From sequence record PQ850606.1: 41,040 nt of DNA, one strand, 5' to 3'. Shown piece after piece: positions 3,080 to 22,895 of the stretch (its first letter is position 1; each line of letters begins with the position of its first letter). The position numbers and the translations under genes are program-made. The notes below the pieces were generated by a model. It was not told the origin of the DNA. It saw only the letters and a list, made by a program, of their open reading frames with translations, and searched no databases. This DNA comes from Escherichia phage HeidiAbel_Bas97.

Positions 3080-4635
3080 TGAAACTGTGGCCATTTACCA
3101 GAAATAAGCCTGCCGAACAGGCACAACAGCCGCGCACGCGGCGTTTACCGCTTAACCGCCTGGCTTCCCGCATGTTTACGGGTGCCAGTGTTGACCGGTT
3201 GGGCACCGCGTGGGGCACGCAGCCGCTGACGGCTGACGAGGTAATCAACAAAAATCAACGCATCCTGGTGGCCCGTTCCCGCGAACAGGCCGCCAATAAC
3301 GACTATGCCAAAAAATTCCTGCGCCTGTGCCGCAACAATATTGTTGGGCCAAAAGGCGTTCTGTTGCAGGCCAAAAGCACTGACAACACCGGAAAACTGG
3401 ACACCCTGGCCAACGAAGCCATTGAAACTGCCTTCGATAAGTGGGGGCACAAGTCAAACTGCGACGTGACCGGGAAGTTATCCTGGCGCGCCATCCAGGC
3501 TGCGTGCATCAACAGCGCGGCCAAAGATGGTGAATTCTTCGTGCGCCTGGTGTTCGGTGCCGATGCAGGGCCGTGGGGCTTTGCGCTGCAACTGCTGGAC
3601 CCGCAACGCTGCCCTGTAGACATGGTTGAAGATCGTCTGAATAACGGAAATTTCATTCGCCAGGGCATCGAGTTTAACCGCTACGGGCGGCCTGTTGCGT
3701 ACTATTTCAGCACGGTTGATGAATCCGATGATAATTACCGTTGGTCCGGGCGTGATTTCGTGCGCATTCCCGCTGATGAAATCCTTCACGGCTTCCTGGA
3801 TGACATGGTGGGGCAGAAACGCGGCCTGCCGTGGATGGCCACCAGCCTGTTTCGTATGCGCCACCTGGGTGGCATGGAAGAAGCCGCGCTGGTCAACGCG
3901 CGAGCCGGTGCCAACAAAATGGGTTTCATCGAATGGGATGAAAATTCCGCTGGTCCTGAGTTTGAAGATGATGACGAACTGATCATTGACAGTGAACCGG
4001 GTGAATTCCAGGTGCTGCCACAGGGCGCACGCGTCAAAGACTGGTCGCCACAGTACCCCAACGGCGAATTTGCCGTGTTCACCAAACAAATGCTGCGCGG
4101 CATGGCATCGGGTATGGGCGTTCCGTATAATGACCTTGCCAGCGACCTGGAAGGCGTCAATTTCAGTTCAATCCGCCAGGGAACGCTAGACAGCCGCGAA
4201 AACTGGAAAGAATTGCAGGAATGGTTGATTGAAAACCTGCATCAACCCGTTTTTGAAGCATGGTTGCCGCGTGCCCTGCTTGCTGGTCGCATCACCGTTA
4301 AAGGCCGCAGCCTGAAACCGGAACGCATCGACCGCTACAGCGATATTGAATGGCAGCCACGCCGTTGGGCCTGGATTGACCCGTCATCTGACGTGGCAGC
4401 CGCTGAACGGTCCAAAAACAACATGCTGCAATCGCCTGGCCGCATCATCCGTGAAGGTGGCAGCGACCCTGACACCGTTTGGAAGGAAACCGCCAGCGAC
4501 GTGGCGCGCATGATTGAGGCGTACACGCAGCACGGCATCAGCCGCGAAATGGCGGAAAAACTGGTCATGCAAAGCATGGGCATGGACAAACAACTGTTAA
4601 TGGGGCAGCAAAATGCAGAAAAACCCGCTGAATAG
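3079..4635 (+). CDS. Portal protein (lambda gpB-like)
   Basis: Recalled similarity to lambda gpB; ATG at 3079 overlaps the upstream stop; the track ORF starts 42 nt further upstream in the same frame. Confidence 0.85.
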   Translation: MKLWPFTRNKPAEQAQQPRTRRLPLNRLASRMFTGASVDRLGTAWGTQPLTADEVINKNQRILVARSREQAANNDYAKKFLRLCRNNIVGPKGVLLQAKSTDNTGKLDTLANEAIETAFDKWGHKSNCDVTGKLSWRAIQAACINSAAKDGEFFVRLVFGADAGPWGFALQLLDPQRCPVDMVEDRLNNGNFIRQGIEFNRYGRPVAYYFSTVDESDDNYRWSGRDFVRIPADEILHGFLDDMVGQKRGLPWMATSLFRMRHLGGMEEAALVNARAGANKMGFIEWDENSAGPEFEDDDELIIDSEPGEFQVLPQGARVKDWSPQYPNGEFAVFTKQMLRGMASGMGVPYNDLASDLEGVNFSSIRQGTLDSRENWKELQEWLIENLHQPVFEAWLPRALLAGRITVKGRSLKPERIDRYSDIEWQPRRWAWIDPSSDVAAAERSKNNMLQSPGRIIREGGSDPDTVWKETASDVARMIEAYTQHGISREMAEKLVMQSMGMDKQLLMGQQNAEKPAE

Positions 4636-6661
4636 CATCATTGGGGCCGAATTTACCCGCAAATCTGACAGCAAAACGCTGCCTGATTTCAACAAAGGCG
4701 GGCTGGTGCGCACTATGGAAGTGCGCAAGTTTGACACCGAAAAACGCACCGTAGAACTGGCTTTTTCATCCGAAATCGAGGTTGAACGCTGGTACGGTAT
4801 CGAAATTCTGGACCATTCGCCGGAAAGCGTGCGCCTGGACCGTCTGCGTGACGGTGGGGCGCTGCTGGTTGACCACGATTGGACTGACCAGGTGGGCGTT
4901 GTTGAATCCGTCAGCATTGACGCTGACCGCCGGGGGCGGGCCGTGGTGCGCTTTGGCCGAAGTGCACGCGCTGACGAGATTTTCCAGGACATCGTTGACG
5001 GCATTCGCAAGCATGTTTCCGTGGGCTACCGCGTGTTAGCGGCCAAGCTACAGGAAACGCGTGACGAGTGGCAGGATGTCTATCGCATCACTGAATGGGA
5101 ACCTTACGAAATTTCAATTGTGAGTGTTCCCGCTGACGCCAGCGTTGGCGTTGGGCGTGCGTTTGACAAACCCCAAGAAGAACAACGCGGCAGCAAATCC
5201 GATACTGCGGGCACCGTAGAGGTTCCAGCACCAACAAATATTGCATCTGAGGGCATTAGAATGGAAAAAATTCTGCGCGACGCAGCCGGTAACCTGGTGC
5301 GCGCAATGGTAGACGAAAAAGGCAACATCACGCAGGTTCTGGAAATGCTGGAACGTGCTGGCGATGATGCGCGCAACGCTGAACAGCGTGGCCGTGAAGC
5401 CGAAAAGGCGCGTGTTCGTTCCATCACTGAAATGGGCGAGAAGTACAACGCACGTGACCTGGCTTTGAAAGCTATTGGCGAAGGCACCACCGCCGAAGAT
5501 TTCCAGCGTTCCTTGCTGGACCACCTGAACAAGCCGAAAGACCCGGCACAACCGGCTGATGGCACCCGTTCCGGCAGCAAGCCGCTGTCAGAAATGCCGT
5601 CCAGCGTGATTGGTATGTCTGACAAAGACATCCGCCGCTATAGCATTTTCAACGTGGTTCGCGCGCTGGCTAACCCGAACGATGCAGCCGCACAGCGTGC
5701 CGCAGCGTTTGAAATCGAATGCAGCCACGCAGCGCAACAGCAGTATGGCCGCAGTGCAAAAGGCATCCTGATCCCCGACGATGTTCTGCGCGCATTCAAC
5801 GCTGGTGGCGCACCGAACACCCCGGCAGGTGCACAGACCGGTTCCAACCTGGTTGGCACTGACTTTATGGCCAGTTCGTTCATCGACCTGCTGCGCCCGC
5901 GTACCACCATCATGCGCCTGGCGCGTACTATGGGCGGCCTGGTTGGTAACGTTGAAATTCCGAAACAGACTGGCGGCGCTACTGCCTACTGGATTGGTGA
6001 AGGTGATGACGCAACCGAAACCACGCCGACCATCGGCCAGCTTGGTTTGTCACCGAAAACCGTTGCGGCTTACACCGACATTACCCGCCGCCTGCTGATG
6101 CAATCCACCCCTGACGCGGAAGCTATCGTGCGCGGTGACCTGGTGGCAGCTATCGCGCAGGCGATTGATTACGCTGGTTACTACGGCACCGGCACCAGCA
6201 ACCAGCCGCTGGGCCTGGCGAACTACACCGGCATTAATGCGGTAGACTTCGCAGCAGACAACCCGACTTATGCGGAACTGGTGCAGATGGAAACCGAAAT
6301 TGCGGCAGACAACGCAGACGTGAACAACATGGCGTATGTGTTGAACGCGCGTGGCCGTGGTGCAGCGAAAACCACGCCGAAGTTTGCCAGCGGTTCTTCC
6401 GTTGCTGACGCTGGCGTGATTTGGGAGCCGGGCAACACCCTGAACGGTTACCGCGCCGAAGTTACCAACCAGGTGCAGGATGGTGACGTGTTCTTTGGCA
6501 ACTTCGCTGACCTGGTGGTTGGTATGTGGGGCGGCCTGGACATGACGGTTGACCCGTACAGCCTGAGCAAATCCGGCGGCCTGCGCATCGTGGTGTTCCA
6601 GGACGTGGATTTTGCGGTGCGCCGCGTTGAATCCTTCGCGCTTGGCCGCAACGCAGAATAA
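4613..6661 (+). CDS. Prohead protease, scaffold (delta-like) and major capsid protein (HK97 fold) in one ORF
   Basis: N-terminal ~190 aa resemble an HK97-type prohead protease; central charged coiled-coil segment; C-terminal ~400 aa resemble an HK97-fold capsid protein; internal in-frame ATG at 5261 with a GAGGG RBS. Confidence 0.75.
   Translation: MQKNPLNSIIGAEFTRKSDSKTLPDFNKGGLVRTMEVRKFDTEKRTVELAFSSEIEVERWYGIEILDHSPESVRLDRLRDGGALLVDHDWTDQVGVVESVSIDADRRGRAVVRFGRSARADEIFQDIVDGIRKHVSVGYRVLAAKLQETRDEWQDVYRITEWEPYEISIVSVPADASVGVGRAFDKPQEEQRGSKSDTAGTVEVPAPTNIASEGIRMEKILRDAAGNLVRAMVDEKGNITQVLEMLERAGDDARNAEQRGREAEKARVRSITEMGEKYNARDLALKAIGEGTTAEDFQRSLLDHLNKPKDPAQPADGTRSGSKPLSEMPSSVIGMSDKDIRRYSIFNVVRALANPNDAAAQRAAAFEIECSHAAQQQYGRSAKGILIPDDVLRAFNAGGAPNTPAGAQTGSNLVGTDFMASSFIDLLRPRTTIMRLARTMGGLVGNVEIPKQTGGATAYWIGEGDDATETTPTIGQLGLSPKTVAAYTDITRRLLMQSTPDAEAIVRGDLVAAIAQAIDYAGYYGTGTSNQPLGLANYTGINAVDFAADNPTYAELVQMETEIAADNADVNNMAYVLNARGRGAAKTTPKFASGSSVADAGVIWEPGNTLNGYRAEVTNQVQDGDVFFGNFADLVVGMWGGLDMTVDPYSLSKSGGLRIVVFQDVDFAVRRVESFALGRNAE
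5165..5181 (+). promoter_or_regulatory. Conserved 17-mer GACAAACCCCAAGAAGA, copy 2
   Basis: Exact match; 80 nt upstream of the internal in-frame ATG at 5261. Confidence 0.45.
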
Positions 6662-6666
6662 CGATC

Positions 6667-6694
6667 ATGGCCGCTTCGGCGGCCATAGTCTTTT
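6667..6694 (+). terminator. Terminator/attenuator hairpin after the major capsid gene
   Basis: Perfect palindrome ATGGCCGC-TTCG-GCGGCCAT then a short T tract (TCTTTTCC). Confidence 0.5.
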
Positions 6695-9855: not shown

Positions 9856-10758
9856 ATGGCCGGTTCTTACACCGTTATTGACTTATCGCAGTTGCCAGCG
9901 CCAACCATCGTTGAACAACTGAGCTTTGAAACAATCCTGGCGGAAATGATTGCTGACCTGCAAGCGCGTGACAGCACGTTTACTGCGCTGGTGGAGTCTG
10001 ACCCCGCTTATAAAATCCTGGAGGTATGCGCGTTTCGTGAACTGCTGGTGCGCCAGCGCGCAAACGAAGAAGCCAAAGCCGTTATGCTGGCCTATGCCAG
10101 CGGCACTGACCTGGACCAGCTAGGGGCCAACGTTGGCGTGAAACGCCTGGTTATCCGACCCGCAGACCCTAACGCGGTGCCGCCAGTTCCGGCAGTCATG
10201 GAAAGTGACAACGAATTCCGCGCACGAATCCAGCTTGCACCGGAAGGCTACACCACGGCAGGTTCCGAAGGCAGTTACGCGTTCCACGCTTTGGGCGCTG
10301 ACGCTGACGTTAAGGACGTGCAGCCCACCAGCCCGACGCCTGGCCACGTGGTCGTTTATGTTCTGTCACGCACTGGCGACGGAGCAGCGCCACAACCATT
10401 GTTGGACAAGGTGAACGCTACGCTGACCAAAGAAGAAGTGCGACCGCTGACCGACAACGTGACGGTCCAATCCGCGCAGATCATCACCTACACCATCAGC
10501 GCGGAACTAACCCTGCTGCCTGGCCCTGATTCAGAAGTGGTGCGCCAGGCCGCGTTTGACGCCGTGGCGGCATACGCCGAAGGCCAGCGCCGCATTGGCT
10601 ATGATGTCACGATGTCGGGCTTGTATCGCGCATTGCATCAGCCAGGTGTGCAGAACGTCAAACTGACTGCGCCAACCGTTTCCCTGGTGTTGGGTGACGG
10701 ACAGGCCAGCTACTGCACTGGCATAACTGTGACCGTGGCAGGTGAAACAGATGTCTGA
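9856..10758 (+). CDS. J: Baseplate protein J
   Basis: 300 aa, P2 gpJ-like, in the conserved W-J-I order. Confidence 0.85.
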   Translation: MAGSYTVIDLSQLPAPTIVEQLSFETILAEMIADLQARDSTFTALVESDPAYKILEVCAFRELLVRQRANEEAKAVMLAYASGTDLDQLGANVGVKRLVIRPADPNAVPPVPAVMESDNEFRARIQLAPEGYTTAGSEGSYAFHALGADADVKDVQPTSPTPGHVVVYVLSRTGDGAAPQPLLDKVNATLTKEEVRPLTDNVTVQSAQIITYTISAELTLLPGPDSEVVRQAAFDAVAAYAEGQRRIGYDVTMSGLYRALHQPGVQNVKLTAPTVSLVLGDGQASYCTGITVTVAGETDV

Positions 10759-11368
10759 CCTGCTGCCACCGAACGCAACCGCGCAGGAACGCGCGCTGGC
10801 TAACACCATCGCCAGAATCAGCGATGTGCCACTGGCTGCGCGCAAGATGTGGAACCCTGACACCATCCCGGCAAACCTGCTGCCGTGGATGGCCTGGGCG
10901 TTCAGCGTTGATGACTGGAACAACAACTGGACCGAACAGGAAAAGCGGAACGTTATCAAAAACTCGCTTTTCGTTCACAAACACAAAGGCACGCTGGCAG
11001 CAATCAAGAGCGCCGTTGAACCGCTTGGCTACATCATTCGCATTGTTGAATGGTGGGAAGATACGCCACAGGCCGAGCCTTACACGTTCCGCCTGGAAGT
11101 TGGCCTGCTTGATAAGGGGGTTGATGAAAGCATTTACGACCAGTTTACAAGGCTGATTGAAACCAACAAAAACCTGCGTTCGCACATGAAGGCGCTGACG
11201 ATTAAATCCGAAATCAACGGCGTGGCTTATTTTGGCGCGGGCATGGTGAGTGGCATCACGACCACTGTTTACCCGTATATTGCAGAAAACCTGGAAAGCA
11301 CTGGCGGAGTGTTTACGGCAGCGGCTGAACAGTCTGTGGATGCGGTTTCTGTTTATCCATTTACTTAA
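10751..11368 (+). CDS. I: Tail/baseplate protein I (start may be 10742)
   Basis: P2 gpI-like; overlaps the J stop; followed by the tail fibre gene. Confidence 0.75.
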   Translation: MSDLLPPNATAQERALANTIARISDVPLAARKMWNPDTIPANLLPWMAWAFSVDDWNNNWTEQEKRNVIKNSLFVHKHKGTLAAIKSAVEPLGYIIRIVEWWEDTPQAEPYTFRLEVGLLDKGVDESIYDQFTRLIETNKNLRSHMKALTIKSEINGVAYFGAGMVSGITTTVYPYIAENLESTGGVFTAAAEQSVDAVSVYPFT

Positions 11369-11384
11369 TATCCGGTGATAATTG

Positions 11385-12656
11385 ATGGCTACTTATTACA
11401 CGCTTTTGACGAAGATTGGCCAGGCGCGCATCGCCAACGCTGTAGCGTTGAATCAGATGGTGAACCTGACCTACATGGCTGTTGGCGACGGTAACGGGAA
11501 CCCTACCACGCCAAATGAAAACCAGACTGCGCTTGTGCGCGAGAAATACCGCGCCACCATCAACCAGTTGACGGTTGACCCTGAAAACCCAAACTATTTG
11601 GTTGCTGAAATGATTGTTCCGACCACTGTTGGTGGCTGGTCAATTTATGAAGTTGGCGTGTTTGACGACCAAAACCAGTTGATCGCGGTGGCCAACTTCC
11701 CTGCGACCTACAAACCTGAACTGGTAGAAGGTTCTGGCCGTGACCTGATTGTGCGCATTATCATTCAGGTTTCAAACACCAGCGTTGTGACGCTTAAAAT
11801 TGACCCTGCTATCACCCTGGCAAGCCAGGCTTGGGTTGCTGCCAACTACGTGAAAAAAATCACGATGGCTGGCGGCACCACCGGCCAGGTGCTGGCGAAG
11901 AAAAGCAACGCCAATGAAGATTTTCAGTGGGTTGACCCGACGGCAGCGGTAAACGTGATCGTTGATTCACAGACTGAAGAACAGACCCTTGCCAGCGGCC
12001 AGACCATCATCAACCTGGCGAAATTGACCACGCAGGCAACGGCTATCTATGTTGAAGGTGTGCGCCTGTACCCGGTCACTCACTACACCATCAACAGTGA
12101 CACGCGGCTGACGCTGAAAACGCCATACCCAAACGGTTCAAAAATCCTGGCCGTTCAGAATGACCCAACCAGCACAATTTCGCTGGCTTCAACCACACAG
12201 AAGGGCTTTACGATTCTGAGCAGCGCCACCAACTCTGACGATGAAACGAAAGCTGCAACACCGAAGGCAGTCAATGATGCTGTAGCTGCACTGGCTTCAA
12301 CGCTAGGGAGCGCTTCCGGTAGAACTGTCGGAAATGGCGCTAACCAGATCCCTGACATGAATTTTTTCACATCAGGAACCAACTGGTTTAAGCAACCAAA
12401 CGGATTCATTGTTCAGCGAGGTGTGTCAGTTGCTGGCGCGATTGGGTCGCCAACATTCATAACTTTCCCGGTGCCGTTCACTGATTATGCCAACGTGCAA
12501 ATCGTGGTTTCATATGACAACGCGGAACCCTATGTGACTTCAATTCCGACATTTGCCGCAACTCCGGTTAACACTGGATCAGGCTTTAGCCTTATGGGTT
12601 CACAGGTTCCCGGTTCAAACACCACTTATGCACGCTGGATAGCAATAGGAAAATAA
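11385..12656 (+). CDS. H: Tail fibre protein (P2 gpH-like N-terminus)
   Basis: N-terminal motifs match P2 gpH (YMAVGDGNGN, LIAVANFPATYKPELVEGSGR, FTILSSATNSDDETKAATPKAV); shorter than P2 H. Confidence 0.8.
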   Translation: MATYYTLLTKIGQARIANAVALNQMVNLTYMAVGDGNGNPTTPNENQTALVREKYRATINQLTVDPENPNYLVAEMIVPTTVGGWSIYEVGVFDDQNQLIAVANFPATYKPELVEGSGRDLIVRIIIQVSNTSVVTLKIDPAITLASQAWVAANYVKKITMAGGTTGQVLAKKSNANEDFQWVDPTAAVNVIVDSQTEEQTLASGQTIINLAKLTTQATAIYVEGVRLYPVTHYTINSDTRLTLKTPYPNGSKILAVQNDPTSTISLASTTQKGFTILSSATNSDDETKAATPKAVNDAVAALASTLGSASGRTVGNGANQIPDMNFFTSGTNWFKQPNGFIVQRGVSVAGAIGSPTFITFPVPFTDYANVQIVVSYDNAEPYVTSIPTFAATPVNTGSGFSLMGSQVPGSNTTYARWIAIGK

Positions 12657-12659
12657 ATA

Positions 12660-13091
12660 ATGAGCAAGTATATGTTTAGTCCATCAACCAACGCGTTCTA
12701 TCCGGTTGCGCTTCAATCAATATACGAAGAAGCAAACATGTGGCCAAATGACGGCGTTGGCTGTGAAGAAGATGTTTTCTCTGAATTTACCGGCGTGCCA
12801 CCAGAAGGAAAGCGGCGCGGGTCTGACAAGGATGGTAACCCGGCATGGGTTGACGTTCCGCCACTTACTAAAGAACAGCAAATAGCCAACGCAAAATCAA
12901 TGCAACAGTATCTGATTGATCAGGCTAATGATTTCATGAATTCAAAACAGTGGCCTGGCAAGGCCGCTATTGGAAGGCTGAAAGATGCAGAGTTGAATCA
13001 ATACAAGATTTGGCTTGATTATCTTGATGCGCTTTACGCTGTAGACACATCGACCGCGCCAGAAATCACCTGGCCAGAACAACCACAATAA
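12660..13091 (+). CDS. G: Tail fibre assembly chaperone (gpG/Tfa family)
   Basis: Immediately downstream of the fibre gene; Tfa-like C-terminus (YKIWLDYLDALYAVDTSTAPEITWPEQP). Confidence 0.75.
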   Translation: MSKYMFSPSTNAFYPVALQSIYEEANMWPNDGVGCEEDVFSEFTGVPPEGKRRGSDKDGNPAWVDVPPLTKEQQIANAKSMQQYLIDQANDFMNSKQWPGKAAIGRLKDAELNQYKIWLDYLDALYAVDTSTAPEITWPEQPQ

Positions 13092-13098
13092 TTATTCA

Positions 13099-13128
13099 GG
13101 CGCTGTTCCCGCAGCGCCATTTTTATTT
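13099..13128 (+). terminator. Rho-independent terminator after the tail fibre assembly gene
   Basis: GGCGCTG-TTCCCG-CAGCGCC then ATTTTTATTT. Confidence 0.6.
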
Positions 13129-13208
13129 GTAATAACCCGTAGTAATAACATGGCCATTACATTATATTAACCTTGCGTTTTCGCATATCATCATAGGTGC
13201 TTCAATGT

Positions 13209-13874
13209 ATGAGTCAGATATTAGAGTTTTGGAAAGGATTGTCGGGCGCTGTTCTTCCATTCGCTGGCGCTAATGCACCGACCGGCTGGCTAATGTGCGA
13301 CGGTTCAGCAGTAAGCCGCACCACATTTGCCGAGTTGTTCGCGTCTATCGGAACCACCTATGGAACTGGTGATGGTTCAACTACTTTCAACCTTCCAGAC
13401 CTGCGCGGGCGCGTAGCGGCTGGCAAAGACAACATGGGCGGAACCCCTGCTAACCGGCTAACAGCAGCAGGCGCAGGAATTACCGGCACGGCACTTGGCG
13501 CAACTGGTGGAAGCCAGACGCACACCATGACAACGGGGCAGATGCCAGCGCATAGCCACGGCGTGAACGACCCTACGCACGCGCATTCTGTTTATGACCC
13601 TACACACACGCACGCCGTCTATGACCCCGGACACGTTCACTCTTATGGCAGGGTTACGACCGGTAACGGGCAGGGTTCTGATATTGGTACGGCAAACAAC
13701 CACGTCACCGCAAACACCGGGGCTGCAACAACTGGCATCAGCCTTTATGCTTCTGCAACTGGCATCGGGATTTATGGAGCCGCAACCGGAATCAGCATCC
13801 AGAACCAGGGCGGTGGGGCGGCACACAACATCACACAGCCAACAATTGTTCTGAATCACATCATCAAGATTTAA
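13209..13874 (+). CDS. Phage tail collar domain protein (MdpB-like) with His-rich tandem repeats
   Basis: Tail-collar signature ([53 protein letters not shown]); bracketed by terminator hairpins. Confidence 0.7.
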
Positions 13875-13896
13875 CCCCTGGTAACTTGTCGCCTTT

Positions 13897-13920
13897 GCCC
13901 GCATCACGCGGGCTTTTTTA
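13897..13920 (+). terminator. Rho-independent terminator after the tail collar gene
   Basis: GCCCGC-ATCAC-GCGGGC then TTTTTTA. Confidence 0.6.
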
Positions 13921-13922
13921 CG

Positions 13923-13939
13923 GACAAACCCCAAGAAGA
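13923..13939 (+). promoter_or_regulatory. Conserved 17-mer GACAAACCCCAAGAAGA, copy 4
   Basis: Exact match just after the terminator at 13897-13920, 73 nt upstream of the sheath ATG. Confidence 0.45.
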
Positions 13940-14011
13940 AGCCACGCACGGTTCCTGCGACCATCACACTGCGAATTTTCACTGTGTGCACAGTCAATAG
14001 GAAACCGAATA

Positions 14012-15439
14012 ATGGCAGGTACTGATTTTTTACATGGCGTGGAGGTGCTGGAAATTGATTCCGGTTCACGCGTCATTCAAACCGTTAAATCGAGCGTCAT
14101 CGGTATTGTTGGCACCGCGCCAAATGCTGACCCTGACGCATTCCCGCTAAACACCCCAACCCTGATTGCAGGCAGCCAGCGCGAAGCGGCCAAACTGGAC
14201 ATGCTTGGCACCGGTGAAGGCACCCTGCCCAAAGCACTGGATGCCATCCTGGACCAGATCGGCGCTGTGGTCATCGTTGTGCGTGTTGAAGAAGGCGAAT
14301 CCGACACCGCAACGCTGGCCAACATTATGGGCGGCGTAAACGCATCAACCGGCAAGTATGAAGGCGTTCACGCACTGCTTGGCGCTGAATCCGTTGTGGG
14401 CTACTCGCCGCGTATTCTGTGCGTGCCTGGCTTCACGCATACCCGCGTTCAGGATGGCGTCACAGCTATCTCCATCGGCAACGGCGGCAGCGGCTACACC
14501 GAAGCGCCTACAATCACCCTGGCTGGTGGCGGTGGCGGTTCTGGTGCAACTGCGCAAGCAACTGTGGTTGGCGGCGTCATCACCAAAATCACCGTCACCA
14601 ACGCGGGTATGGGCTACACCGAAGCGCCAACCGTTACCATCACTGGCGGCAACGGCACCGGCGCAACTGCAACCGCATCCGTTGGCATCGCAGCCAATGC
14701 CGTGGTTTCTGAACTGCTTGGCATCGCCAACCGCCTGCGTGCTGTCATCATCGCTGACGGTCCAAACACCAACGACGCTGACGCCATCGCGTACCGCAAA
14801 GACTTTGGCAGCAAGCGCGTTTATGTGGTTGACCCAAAAGTGCTGGTGCTTGACGAAGACGGCACCACAATTACTGATTGGGCATCGCCGCGCGTGGCTG
14901 GCCTAATTGCCCGCATCGACAACGAGCGCGGTTTCTGGTGGTCACCGTCAAACCAGGAAATCTATGGCATCCAGGGCACAGCCCGAACCATTGATTTCAC
15001 CCTGGGTGACACGTCCAGCCGTGCAAACCTGCTGAACGAAAACGAAGTCACCACCATCATTCGCCAGGACGGTTTTCGCCTGTGGGGCAACCGCACCACT
15101 TCCAGCGATCCGAAATGGGCGTTTCTGTGCGTTGTTCGCACGGCTGACATCATCAATGACAGCCTGCTGCGTGCACACCTGTGGGCCGTAGACCGTGGCA
15201 TCACCAAACAATACGTCAATGACGTGATTGAAGGCGTGAACGCGTACCTGCGTAACCTGGTGAGCCTGGGCGCAATTCTTGGCGGCACGTGTTGGGCTGA
15301 CCCTGACTTAAATACTGCTGACCAAATTGCTGACGGTAAGGTATACTTTGATTTTGATTTCACGCCTGTTTATCCGGCTGAACACATTATCTTCCGCAGC
15401 CAATTGACCAACGATTATATTAGTGAGGTATTCGAATAA
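14012..15439 (+). CDS. FI: Tail sheath protein (P2 FI-like) carrying an internal 40-aa tandem duplication
   Basis: ATG at 14012 with AGGAAA RBS; sheath-like N-terminus ([12 protein letters not shown]) and C-terminus; the track ORF 5' extension is rejected. Confidence 0.9.
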
Positions 15440-22818: not shown

Positions 22819-22895
22819 TGGCGACCCCTACAGGAATCGAACCTGTAACCTACAGCTTAGAAGGCTGTCGCTCTATCCGGTTGAGCTAAGGGGCC
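22819..22895 (-). tRNA. tRNA-Arg (anticodon UCU), 77 nt with encoded CCA
   Basis: Reverse complement folds by hand into a full cloverleaf: 7-bp acceptor stem with one G-U pair, D arm, anticodon loop CUUCUAA, T-loop TTCGATT, discriminator G and CCA. Confidence 0.85.

Follow-up and report, generated by a model that had tools for sequence, protein, structure and literature searches.

In Escherichia phage HeidiAbel_Bas97 (PQ850606.1), the window analysed here is the whole stretch of 41,040 nucleotides. Upstream of the tail sheath the gene order is fibre (PF12571, PF03406 and Gp53-like_C), Caudo_TAP chaperone, gp17 and sheath, all within a region whose features are collected in Table 1. Gp15, with a published length of 423 aa, is the first half of the receptor-binding module, and its distal part is exchanged between close relatives. 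The sequence of Gp16 is that of the published HeidiAbel CDS_0016, and its gene has a GC content of 0.461. An open reading frame on the plus strand at 13197-13874, beginning with GTG, has a length of 225 aa. The likely start of gp17 is the ATG at 13209, preceded by the ribosome-binding site AGGTG, and this choice matches both the PT1 annotation and the published CDS_0017 of HeidiAbel (Bas97, Jilinvirus), to which Gp17 is 100% identical. The original prediction of a tail-collar-domain protein at this locus is confirmed by a match of Pfam PF07484 to residues 13-69 with 88.2 bits and E=3.5e-25 (curated cut-off 24 bits), but the product has 221 aa and not 222 aa as first given. The GC content of gp17 is 0.556, compared to a genome and window mean of 0.553. 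An antisense open reading frame of 203 aa (13458-14069) overlaps gp17 in this GC-rich coding region and was taken as a chance occurrence.

Table 1. Coordinates of the genes, regulatory elements and Gp17 segments between the main tail fibre gene and the sheath gene.
Feature	Position	Strand	Basis
Gp15, main P2 gpH-like tail fibre	11385..12656	+	Pfam Phage_tail_fib PF12571 (residues 2-149), Phage_fiber_2, Gp53-like_C
Gp16, Caudo_TAP tail fibre assembly chaperone for Gp15	12660..13091	+	Pfam PF02413, E=1.9e-28
Intrinsic terminator after the fibre/chaperone pair	13099..13128	+	Hairpin 13099-13118 and T-run AUUUUUAUUU
AT-rich conserved spacer with RBS AGGTG (13194-13198)	13119..13208	+	GC content, alignment to PT1
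gp17 CDS including stop, 221-aa Collar-needle protein (probable receptor-binding protein)	13209..13874	+	Sequence, profiles, homologues
N-terminal 13 residues, candidate docking peptide	13209..13247	+	AF2 helix 2-10, pLDDT about 76
Collar domain core, residues 13-69	13245..13415	+	PF07484, 88.2 bits; aligns to T4 gp12 collar (1OCY)
Outgoing needle strand, four HxH motifs	13542..13649	+	Residues 115, 124, 133 and 142, exact 9-residue period
Distal tip, residues 148-173, putative receptor-contacting end	13650..13727	+	Lies between the two repeat ladders
Returning needle strand, three TGI-x-I/L-Y repeats and Gly-rich turn	13731..13823	+	Residues 175, 184 and 193
C-terminal closing strand, 17 residues, completes the Collar fold	13821..13871	+	Invariant H206, Q210, P211, T212, N216 and I219
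Intrinsic terminator closing the fibre module	13897..13919	+	Hairpin 13897-13913 and UUUUUU
Conserved leader of the sheath-tube operon	13920..14011	+	GGACAAACCCCAAGAAGAA ... CCTGCGACCAT ... palindrome ACTGTGTGCACAGT at 13981-13994; from alignment

The gene had been predicted to lie between two rho-independent terminators and behind an AT-rich gap, and all three elements are borne out. The upstream hairpin has a folding energy of -15.2 kcal/mol (z=-4.4), with an equally good fold in none of 200 shuffled sequences, and is kept in PT1, L169 and L170 despite their different fibre cassettes. The downstream hairpin (about -13 kcal/mol, z=-2.25) is kept, with pairing-preserving changes in the stem, in Alux-21, Persinger, PPpW-3, Mano, MQ-4, Mica, L008 and ep3; the sequence record of Mano labels the element as a terminator. 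The GC content of the whole intergenic spacer (13092-13208, 117 nt) is 0.385 against 0.553 for the window, and the aligned segment across it is 96% identical to PT1, compared to 86.8% in the wider region. No sigma-70-like promoter on the plus strand was found in the spacer upstream of gp17. The conserved spacer motif ATTACATTATATTAAC occurs once in the window, and no shared late-promoter motif could be defined. The combination of a strong upstream terminator with no detected promoter makes the route of gp17 expression puzzling.

The His-rich repeat (residues 121-147, nt 13569-13649) and the Gly-rich repeat (residues 175-205, nt 13731-13823) of the original prediction are both present, and their 9-residue period in the protein corresponds to 27-nt repeats in the DNA. 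Tandem Repeats Finder reports arrays of this period at 13569-13627 (2.2 copies, 81% matches) and at 13729-13798 (2.6 copies, 74%). All eight histidines of the HxH motifs are kept in 28 of the 29 homologues of 221 aa, and across 108 homologues the number of HxH rungs co-varies with the number of TG[IV] repeats (r=0.75). The closing strand is the most conserved region of the protein. At the other end, the consensus MSxxLxLWxGxTG is conserved among the homologues, and a similar N-terminus also precedes non-Collar proteins found at the same genomic position, such as L115. There is no recognisable N-terminal anchor domain in Gp17, in which about 12 residues, predicted to be helical, precede the Collar domain, and there is no shaft.

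Structure prediction of the repeat region had been suggested originally as a check, and the resulting model was used for the N-terminal helix and the collar alone. The AF2 monomer has pLDDT values of 81-88 across the Collar core but low confidence in the needle (mean pLDDT 64.8, with values under 50 for residues 73-104). A β-hairpin formed by residues 144-150 and 164-170 is modelled in the tip, within this low-confidence needle model. Because of this weakness of the monomer, the trimer geometry discussed below is taken from homology and from the multimer model in the literature.

Gp17 matches PHROG tail-fibre families, with the matches falling at the C-terminal parts of longer fibres. The best solved homologue is the arm of gp34, the long tail fibre (LTF) of Anabaena myophage A-1(L) (8KEC). 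The family profile aligns residues 24-220 to residues 176-378 of this protein with E=3.1e-25, and the Collar start, the HxH motifs, the TG[IV]-type return repeats and the closing strand all find their counterparts, the last of these through residue 220 at the gp34 C-terminus. Three HxH motifs of Gp17 align to HxH motifs of gp34. The two proteins differ at the N-terminus, where a 155-residue shoulder anchors gp34 to the baseplate wedge (PMC10966104) and Gp17 has 12 residues. The isolated gp34 arm was among the GFP- and BFP-tagged constructs tried on host cells by the same authors, who conclude that the A-1(L) LTF is a receptor-binding protein and cite the O-antigen as its target (PMC10966104).

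A Foldseek search ranked 8KEC first (E=3e-7), together with the T4 gp37 tip (2XGF, E=1e-3) and gp12, at TM scores of 0.29-0.36 and with a query model of low confidence outside the collar, which makes the search supportive at best. The likeness to gp37 consists of a collar-needle-head architecture with HxH motifs, which in gp37 coordinate ions along the trimer axis; it is seen by fold search alone, from a low-confidence model (E about 1e-3). With seven HxH rungs and a larger head, T4 gp37 forms the distal segment of a four-protein fibre and requires the chaperones gp57A and gp38, whereas Gp17 has four rungs and stands alone. T4 gp12 (1OCY, 5IV5) shares a homologous Collar domain, which the family profile detects with E=1.6e-6, and its role as a second, short receptor-binding fibre is analogous to the one proposed here. 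However, the 527 aa of gp12 include a long shaft and, at the N-terminus, a region that binds the baseplate, both missing from the 221 aa of Gp17; the head between its collar strands differs, and the homology is limited to Gp17 residues 11-118.

Humolli et al. (PLoS Biol 2025, PMC11990801) recently described Gp17, from an AlphaFold-Multimer model of the trimer with a pLDDT of 92.8, as a homotrimer that makes up a tail fibre of its own and ends in a truncated T4 gp37-like tip. They speculate that its function is that of a short tail fibre in irreversible adsorption. Their treatment consists of structure prediction and speculation and leaves the slot across relatives unanalysed. The protein, its family and the HxH needle are therefore already described, and the present analysis changes no current concept. 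The literature searched yielded no virion proteomics, host-binding data, structures or genetics for Gp17 or any Iiscvirinae homologue.

To describe the slot upstream of the sheath gene, roughly 35 closest relatives, with sheaths at least 66% identical, were surveyed. The slot is usually occupied by a fibre-type receptor-binding domain; in a few relatives the open reading frame nearest the sheath is chaperone-like or unclassified. In about 12 non-redundant relatives, drawn from Jilinvirus, Harrisonburgvirus, Hiroshimavirus, Manovirus and unclassified phages, the slot lies 125-141 nt ahead of the sheath gene and contains a Collar protein; in others it contains Gp53-like_C or a Gly-rich domain that scores below the Pfam threshold. 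Where the sheath is 96-99% identical, and gpJ and gpI likewise (96-99%) as far as they were compared, the slot protein behaves like a host-range cassette: its identity to Gp17 is 98%, 84%, 81% or 60%, or another receptor-binding domain takes its place. The ep3 clade has no Collar protein in the slot, which shows that the lineage can do without this domain, yet ep3 retains the downstream terminator together with about 100 nt of leader. In Persinger and MQ-4 the start of the slot gene overlaps the preceding gene, which indicates co-transcription.

With dN/dS values of 0.09-0.28, gp17 is under purifying selection. Relative to PT1 and L169, dS is 0.11-0.17 in residues 1-113 and 1.2-1.8 in residues 114-200. 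This pattern indicates that the needle half has been exchanged as a block and that the gene is internally mosaic with respect to its close relatives. Diversification focused on the tip was considered and set aside, mean pairwise identity being alike in all regions (0.58-0.82 among the 221-aa homologues). We also rejected a Mu- or P1-like cassette with invertible or alternative tips: the inverted pairs in 10700-14100 are weak and scattered, and gp17 is co-oriented with the fibre gene.

We propose, with a probability of about 0.8, that Gp17 is a virion tail protein forming a homotrimeric mini-fibre that is almost entirely receptor-binding tip and serves as a second recognition protein. An extra receptor-binding or host-range protein, one of the roles originally suggested for it, is the best reading of the gp34-arm profile match, the HxH/TGI geometry, the dN/dS values and the needle mosaicism. 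The basis for the proposal in this analysis is homology, motif geometry, selection and slot conservation, to which the literature adds a confident trimer prediction. In the proposed arrangement, a short needle would rise from the Collar domain, which residues 13-69 form and the last 17 residues close. Each chain would run outward through the four HxH motifs, spaced 9 residues apart, turn at the 26-residue tip and return through the three TGI repeats of the same period. The tip would bind a cell-surface structure, possibly LPS or another envelope component, adding a second step of recognition to the one by the Gp15/Gp16 fibre. The conserved helix formed by about 12 N-terminal residues may attach the protein to the baseplate.

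The His-rich repeat had also been suggested to make Gp17 a metal-binding accessory factor. Ion coordination is the role given to HxH motifs in fibre tips of the gp37 type (PMC8174754, PMC11990801), and metal binding by the repeat is plausible. By analogy with the T4 gp37 needle, the six histidines that the trimer contributes to each HxH rung would hold a single Fe or Zn ion and thereby staple the needle. A role as an accessory factor is unlikely, because the His motifs appear to form a structural ladder, the rungs of which co-vary with the opposing TG[IV] repeats.

One variant of this best explanation, different in the attachment step alone, deserves to be weighed first. Gp17 could be a receptor-binding protein docked by its N-terminal helix on the conserved proximal part of Gp15, giving a branched fibre like those of the CBA120/G7C systems and not a T4-style short fibre on the baseplate. 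The lack of an anchor domain, with just 12 residues before the Collar, would fit such docking. So would the retention of the N-terminal roughly 260-330 residues of Gp15 in relatives with a Gp17, while the Gp15 tip and the chaperone vary, and the frequent occurrence in relatives of a PF12571 N-terminus and a Collar tip in one polypeptide (the L168 fibre, ep3_0042). However, gpJ and gpI are equally conserved in L169, L170 and PT1 and are thus equally good candidate docking partners, and the published view favours a separate short fibre (PMC11990801). We regard docking on Gp15 as rather doubtful.

It is improbable that Gp17 is a non-structural helper that does not remain in the particle, whether as a factor for fibre assembly or as a soluble metal binder. 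The protein is small, His-rich and without an anchor, and its gene adjoins the fibre gene; entries in the reference list of PMC8174754 indicate that some fibre chaperones bind host cells too. Against this, Gp15 has its own Caudo_TAP chaperone, and in relatives a small, distinct chaperone gene lies between the genes for the fibre and the slot protein. Gp17 is 98% identical in L170 even though the Gp15 tip and the chaperone are unrelated there, which indicates that it is not paired with a client fibre. Moreover, it aligns over its whole length to the arm of a virion fibre of known structure.

The original prediction also presented gp17 as a self-contained unit at the position where P2 carries Z/fun, which would make it a moron: independently transcribed, horizontally acquired and acting outside the virion in lysogenic conversion or defence. 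The terminators on both sides and the AT-rich gap in front suggested as much. By gene order, the position is that of the G-FI interval in P2. The likeness to Z/fun is confined to this position between fibre-assembly and sheath genes; Fun/Z is a defence system to which Gp17 has no relation in sequence or function. A PADLOC scan of Gp17 returned no family at E<=1 and an NCBIfam scan gave no match, and the defence reading was dropped on these grounds. The GC content of gp17 is not atypical, the AT-rich signature being that of the neighbouring Tfa gene and the spacer. The gene is under purifying selection, all of its homology is to fibre tips, and where it is replaced, the replacements are other fibre domains, Gp53-like_C or Gly-rich. 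The same slot is filled across several genera, with co-transcription in two of the phages, and the downstream terminator is a feature of the lineage, present in ep3 even without the gene. The claim of a moron-like unit thus finds no support, and we consider a moron very improbable; gp17 is most likely an ordinary conserved part of the tail module of this phage group and not an imported extra gene.

Hardly any weight can be given to the idea that gp17 is a decaying remnant, the C-terminal end of an ancestral fibre with a Collar tip that was left behind on replacement of the Gp15 tip/chaperone cassette: Gp17 does correspond to the C-terminal part of longer fibres, and relatives do have a Collar-tipped main fibre plus a short protein, but the dN/dS values are low, all predicted metal-ligand histidines are retained, and the intact reading frame, start, ribosome-binding site and N-terminal peptide are conserved across genera whose sheaths are 67-76% identical.

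The second receptor-binding protein proposed here may belong to a wider class. It is possible, and we suggest it tentatively, that the slot upstream of the sheath in Iiscvirinae-like myoviruses holds anchor-less mini-fibres consisting of a receptor-binding domain only, which have as their one common element an amphipathic helix at the N-terminus (about 12 residues, MSxxLxLxxxLxG) and plug interchangeable folds into one socket on the baseplate or proximal fibre. The folds would include the collar-needle, a Gp53-like knob and a Gly-rich domain. If such a class exists, it would constitute a minimal plug-and-play second receptor-binding system.

This small, O-antigen-dependent E. coli myovirus of therapeutic type has two candidate host-range determinants, of which Gp17 is one. 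A receptor role for Gp17, together with its ligand and mode of attachment, would show how minimal P2-like tails perform two-step recognition. A conserved slot in conserved flanking DNA, in which receptor-binding folds are exchanged, would also be a natural site for host-range engineering.

The gene of the Collar-domain protein Gp17 is real, and from its probable start it encodes 221 aa, one residue fewer than the 222 of the original prediction. A tail-collar domain is matched at residues 13-69 by Pfam PF07484 (Collar) with 88.2 bits, the threshold being 24 bits. Hairpins followed by T-runs are present on both sides of the gene, as expected for two rho-independent terminators, and the AT-rich gap ahead of it is a 117-nt spacer with a GC of 0.385. 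The His-rich repeat consists of three copies of DPxHxHxVY (residues 121-147) and the Gly-rich repeat of three TGIxIY-type units, starting within residues 175-205; both are visible in the DNA with a 27-nt period. The arrangement was correctly spotted and is ordinary in kind.

Features of the window and of related loci (window coordinates unless a locus is named)
Feature	Coordinates	Properties
Gp17 ORF	13197-13874 (+)	probable start ATG 13209; AGGTG upstream at 13194-13198
Upstream terminator hairpin	13099-13118	dG -15.2 kcal/mol, z=-4.4
Downstream terminator hairpin	13897-13913	dG about -13 kcal/mol, z=-2.25
27-nt-period tandem repeats	13569-13627; 13729-13798	
Region compared for fibre/chaperone exchange	11385-13128	
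Tfa gene initiation context	12643-12662	CAATAGGAAAATAAATAATG
Sheath gene initiation context	13995-14014	CAATAGGAAACCGAATAATG
Leader, terminator to sheath start	13920-14011	GGACAAACCCCAAGAAGAA…CCTGCGACCAT
Perfect palindrome in leader	13981-13994	ACTGTGTGCACAGT
Sheath internal insertion	14447-14725	sheath residues about 146-238
682-aa ORF	4613-6661	presumed protease/capsid gene
Strong bidirectional hairpin	6666-6687	ATGGCCGCTTCGGCGGCCAT
tRNA-Arg(TCT)	22819-22895 (-)	sole tRNA gene of window
PT1 match to HeidiAbel Tfa	L001 3458-3880	tblastn
PT1 annotated "tail fiber assembly protein" CDS	L001 3770-3883 (region 3458-3883)	114 nt
L170 slot protein		98% identical to Gp17; main fibre tip and chaperone unrelated
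PT1 slot protein		84% identical to Gp17
L169 slot protein		81% identical to Gp17
Alux-21 slot protein		60% identical to Gp17
ep3 slot protein (ep3_0044)	L002 4637-4999	stand-alone Gp53-like_C knob, 120 aa, in place of Gp17

In PHROG, the profiles that match Gp17 are those of longer tail fibres, and the match falls in their C-terminal parts (in one 303-position family, at positions 142-300). Among solved structures, the best match in a single-sequence search is gp34, the long tail fibre (LTF) of cyanophage A-1(L) (8KEC, E=1.5e-19). A profile built from 67 family sequences aligns Gp17 residues 24-220 with gp34 residues 176-378, the arm domain (E=3.1e-25), and the profile match of T4 gp12 is confined to the collar part. 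Host cells have been probed with fluorescent gp34 constructs, the arm by itself among them, and the authors' conclusion is that the LTF works as a receptor-binding protein (PMC10966104). Structure prediction had been proposed as a check; in the AF2 monomer, the helix at residues 2-10 and the collar are confident and the rest is poor (mean pLDDT 64.8), the low confidence beyond the collar being expected for an intertwined trimer. Foldseek with this monomer, poor as it is outside the helix and collar, ranks 8KEC, the T4 gp37 tip (2XGF) and gp12 first.

Four HxH motifs at residues 115, 124, 133 and 142 are spaced by exactly 9 residues, and three TGI motifs at 175, 184 and 193 follow with the same period after a 26-residue segment. 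All eight HxH histidines are retained in 28 of the 29 homologues of 221 aa, and across 108 homologues of up to 265 aa the HxH count (1 to 6) co-varies with the TG[IV] count (r=0.75). The pattern fits an out-and-back needle that would grow or shrink rung by rung. At the sequence level, Gp17 carries the marks of the Collar-needle fibre-tip family, namely the Collar HMM, the closing strand and the in-register HxH. In gp37-type tips, metal ions along the fibre axis are coordinated by HxH motifs that all three chains contribute (PMC8174754, PMC11990801), which makes the earlier idea of metal binding reasonable as a structural staple, not as an accessory function; by this analogy, the Gp17 motifs may bind metal as well. 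That Gp17 is instead a non-structural assembly or metal-binding factor is improbable in view of the homology, the needle and the slot, the gene position just upstream of the sheath gene.

Slot contents were compared on backbones with 96-99% identical sheaths, and gpJ and gpI baseplate proteins 96-99% identical where compared (table). In other relatives (slot ORFs of L090, L115, L105 and L106 examined), the slot holds Gp53-like_C proteins of 139-243 aa, and in L106 a 278-aa protein with a weak match to the Gly-rich domain PF21722 (20.6 bits, below the 24.3-bit cut-off). The non-Collar slot genes, in ep3-type Jilinviruses and other relatives, are annotated as "hypothetical". Within gp17, dS against PT1 and L169 is 0.11-0.17 in residues 1-113 and 1.2-1.8 in residues 114-200, so the needle half was swapped in one block. 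Evolution of this kind is that of receptor-binding proteins and not of conserved mechanical parts.

The original prediction also put the gene at the position of the P2 Z/fun moron; the two have the map position in common and nothing else. The GC of gp17 is 0.556 against a genome mean of 0.553, and the AT-rich signal sits in the adjoining chaperone gene (GC 0.461) and the spacer. No match to Gp17 was obtained in scans of defence families and NCBIfam, and dN/dS values of 0.09-0.28 against five relatives indicate purifying selection. About 12 non-redundant relatives have a Collar protein (162-254 aa) in the slot, including Alux-21, MQ-4, Persinger, PPpW-3, Mano, Mica and metagenomic contigs, with sheaths only 67-76% identical to that of HeidiAbel. 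Their Collar genes end 90-141 nt before the sheath start, mostly 125-141 nt (137 nt here). In Persinger and MQ-4 the slot gene and the one before it share 4 nt, and the slot gene is thus co-transcribed with the fibre genes there. GC, selection, slot conservation and the absent defence match leave a moron or defence gene very improbable, and a decaying fibre fragment is no better placed against the same homology, selection and slot data.

The slot-Collar phages all keep the downstream terminator, with stem changes preserving the pairing, and roughly 100 nt of leader; ep3, which has no Collar gene, keeps them too. This terminator is punctuation separating the fibre module from the sheath-tube operon. 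The leader is conserved across genera, and in enterobacterial members it carries the palindrome right before the sheath ribosome-binding site. RNA folding of the palindrome-bearing leader gave no stable fold; a role in protein binding or as a late-promoter element is therefore possible. The sheath insertion holds a Gly/Thr-rich unit of roughly 40 residues twice over; in PHROG this unit matches repeat domains found in large structural, fibre and baseplate proteins of virions. The insertion is probably a surface-exposed decoration domain. Elsewhere, the hairpin directly 3' of the presumed protease/capsid gene is probably a terminator or attenuator punctuating the head operon.

Comparison with L168, L169, L170 and PT1 showed that the distal part of Gp15, the main P2 gpH-like tail fibre, is swapped together with its chaperone as a cassette on near-identical backbones, beginning beyond residue about 260-330 (about 370 in PT1 and L169). 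The downstream boundary is the conserved 3' end of the chaperone gene with the terminator and spacer; these last two are kept in PT1, L169 and L170 despite different main-fibre tips and chaperones, which suggests that the spacer bounds the exchangeable cassette. The Tfa and sheath genes have near-identical initiation contexts. HeidiAbel Tfa, the Gp16 chaperone, is matched in PT1 over essentially its full length, and the much shorter annotated PT1 CDS is probably a mis-annotation or frameshift.

The tail genes place the phage in genus Jilinvirus, subfamily Iiscvirinae, and the nearest deposited relative for gp17 is Salmonella phage PT1, whose protein is annotated as tail fiber protein. Numbered from the small terminase, the fibre, chaperone and Collar genes are 15, 16 and 17. 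CDS_0017 of HeidiAbel (Bas97) in the supplementary annotation of the BASEL completion paper (PMC11990801) is identical to our ORF. Full-length agreement with ORFs of the window was also seen for the sequences given there for CDS_0014 (counted from its ATG), CDS_0016, CDS_0019 and CDS_0020, and CDS_0013 agrees over the part that is given, which identifies the window as Escherichia phage HeidiAbel and the protein as its Gp17. In that paper, Gp17 is presented as a homotrimer forming a tail fibre of its own, with a distal tip like a truncated T4 gp37 tip (AlphaFold-Multimer pLDDT 92.8), and HeidiAbel is shown to be fully dependent on O16 O-antigen. Its authors speculate that the lateral fibre is made by Gp15, whereas Gp17 would serve as a short tail fibre in irreversible adsorption. 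One tRNA is shown there for HeidiAbel, consistent with the single tRNA gene here. The finding is thus not new, this very protein having been published before and its structure interpreted in the same way. The present analysis adds that the moron framing is to be rejected, that the slot is conserved and exchangeable, that the gene is internally mosaic, that the rung numbers co-vary and that an N-terminal helix is shared.

We propose, with a probability of roughly 0.8, that Gp17 is a virion-borne homotrimer in which the collar would form the base, a short, metal-stapled needle of four rungs would follow, and a small distal tip would touch a surface receptor, adding a second recognition step beside Gp15/Gp16. 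The N-terminal anchor domain by which fibres are usually recognized is lacking. Whereas a separate 155-residue shoulder domain anchors gp34 of A-1(L) (PMC10966104), only 12 residues, predicted as an amphipathic helix, precede the collar of Gp17, and its architecture also differs from that of a T4 gp12-type short fibre. This helix is conserved in stand-alone Collar proteins (consensus MSxxLxLWxGxTG), and slot proteins of other folds begin with similar helices: MSRVLELISSLAG in L115 (compared with MSRVLTLWAGMTG in MQ-4), MSLASRLIKAIF in L090 and MSEVLRGI in ep3. From this we tentatively infer a constant docking element with an exchangeable receptor-binding domain behind it. Its docking site may be the gpJ/gpI wedge, as in a short-fibre model, or the conserved proximal part of Gp15, as in a branched-fibre model. 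Of mild interest is the way in which such a mini-fibre, a receptor-binding protein with no anchor, would be attached to the tail.
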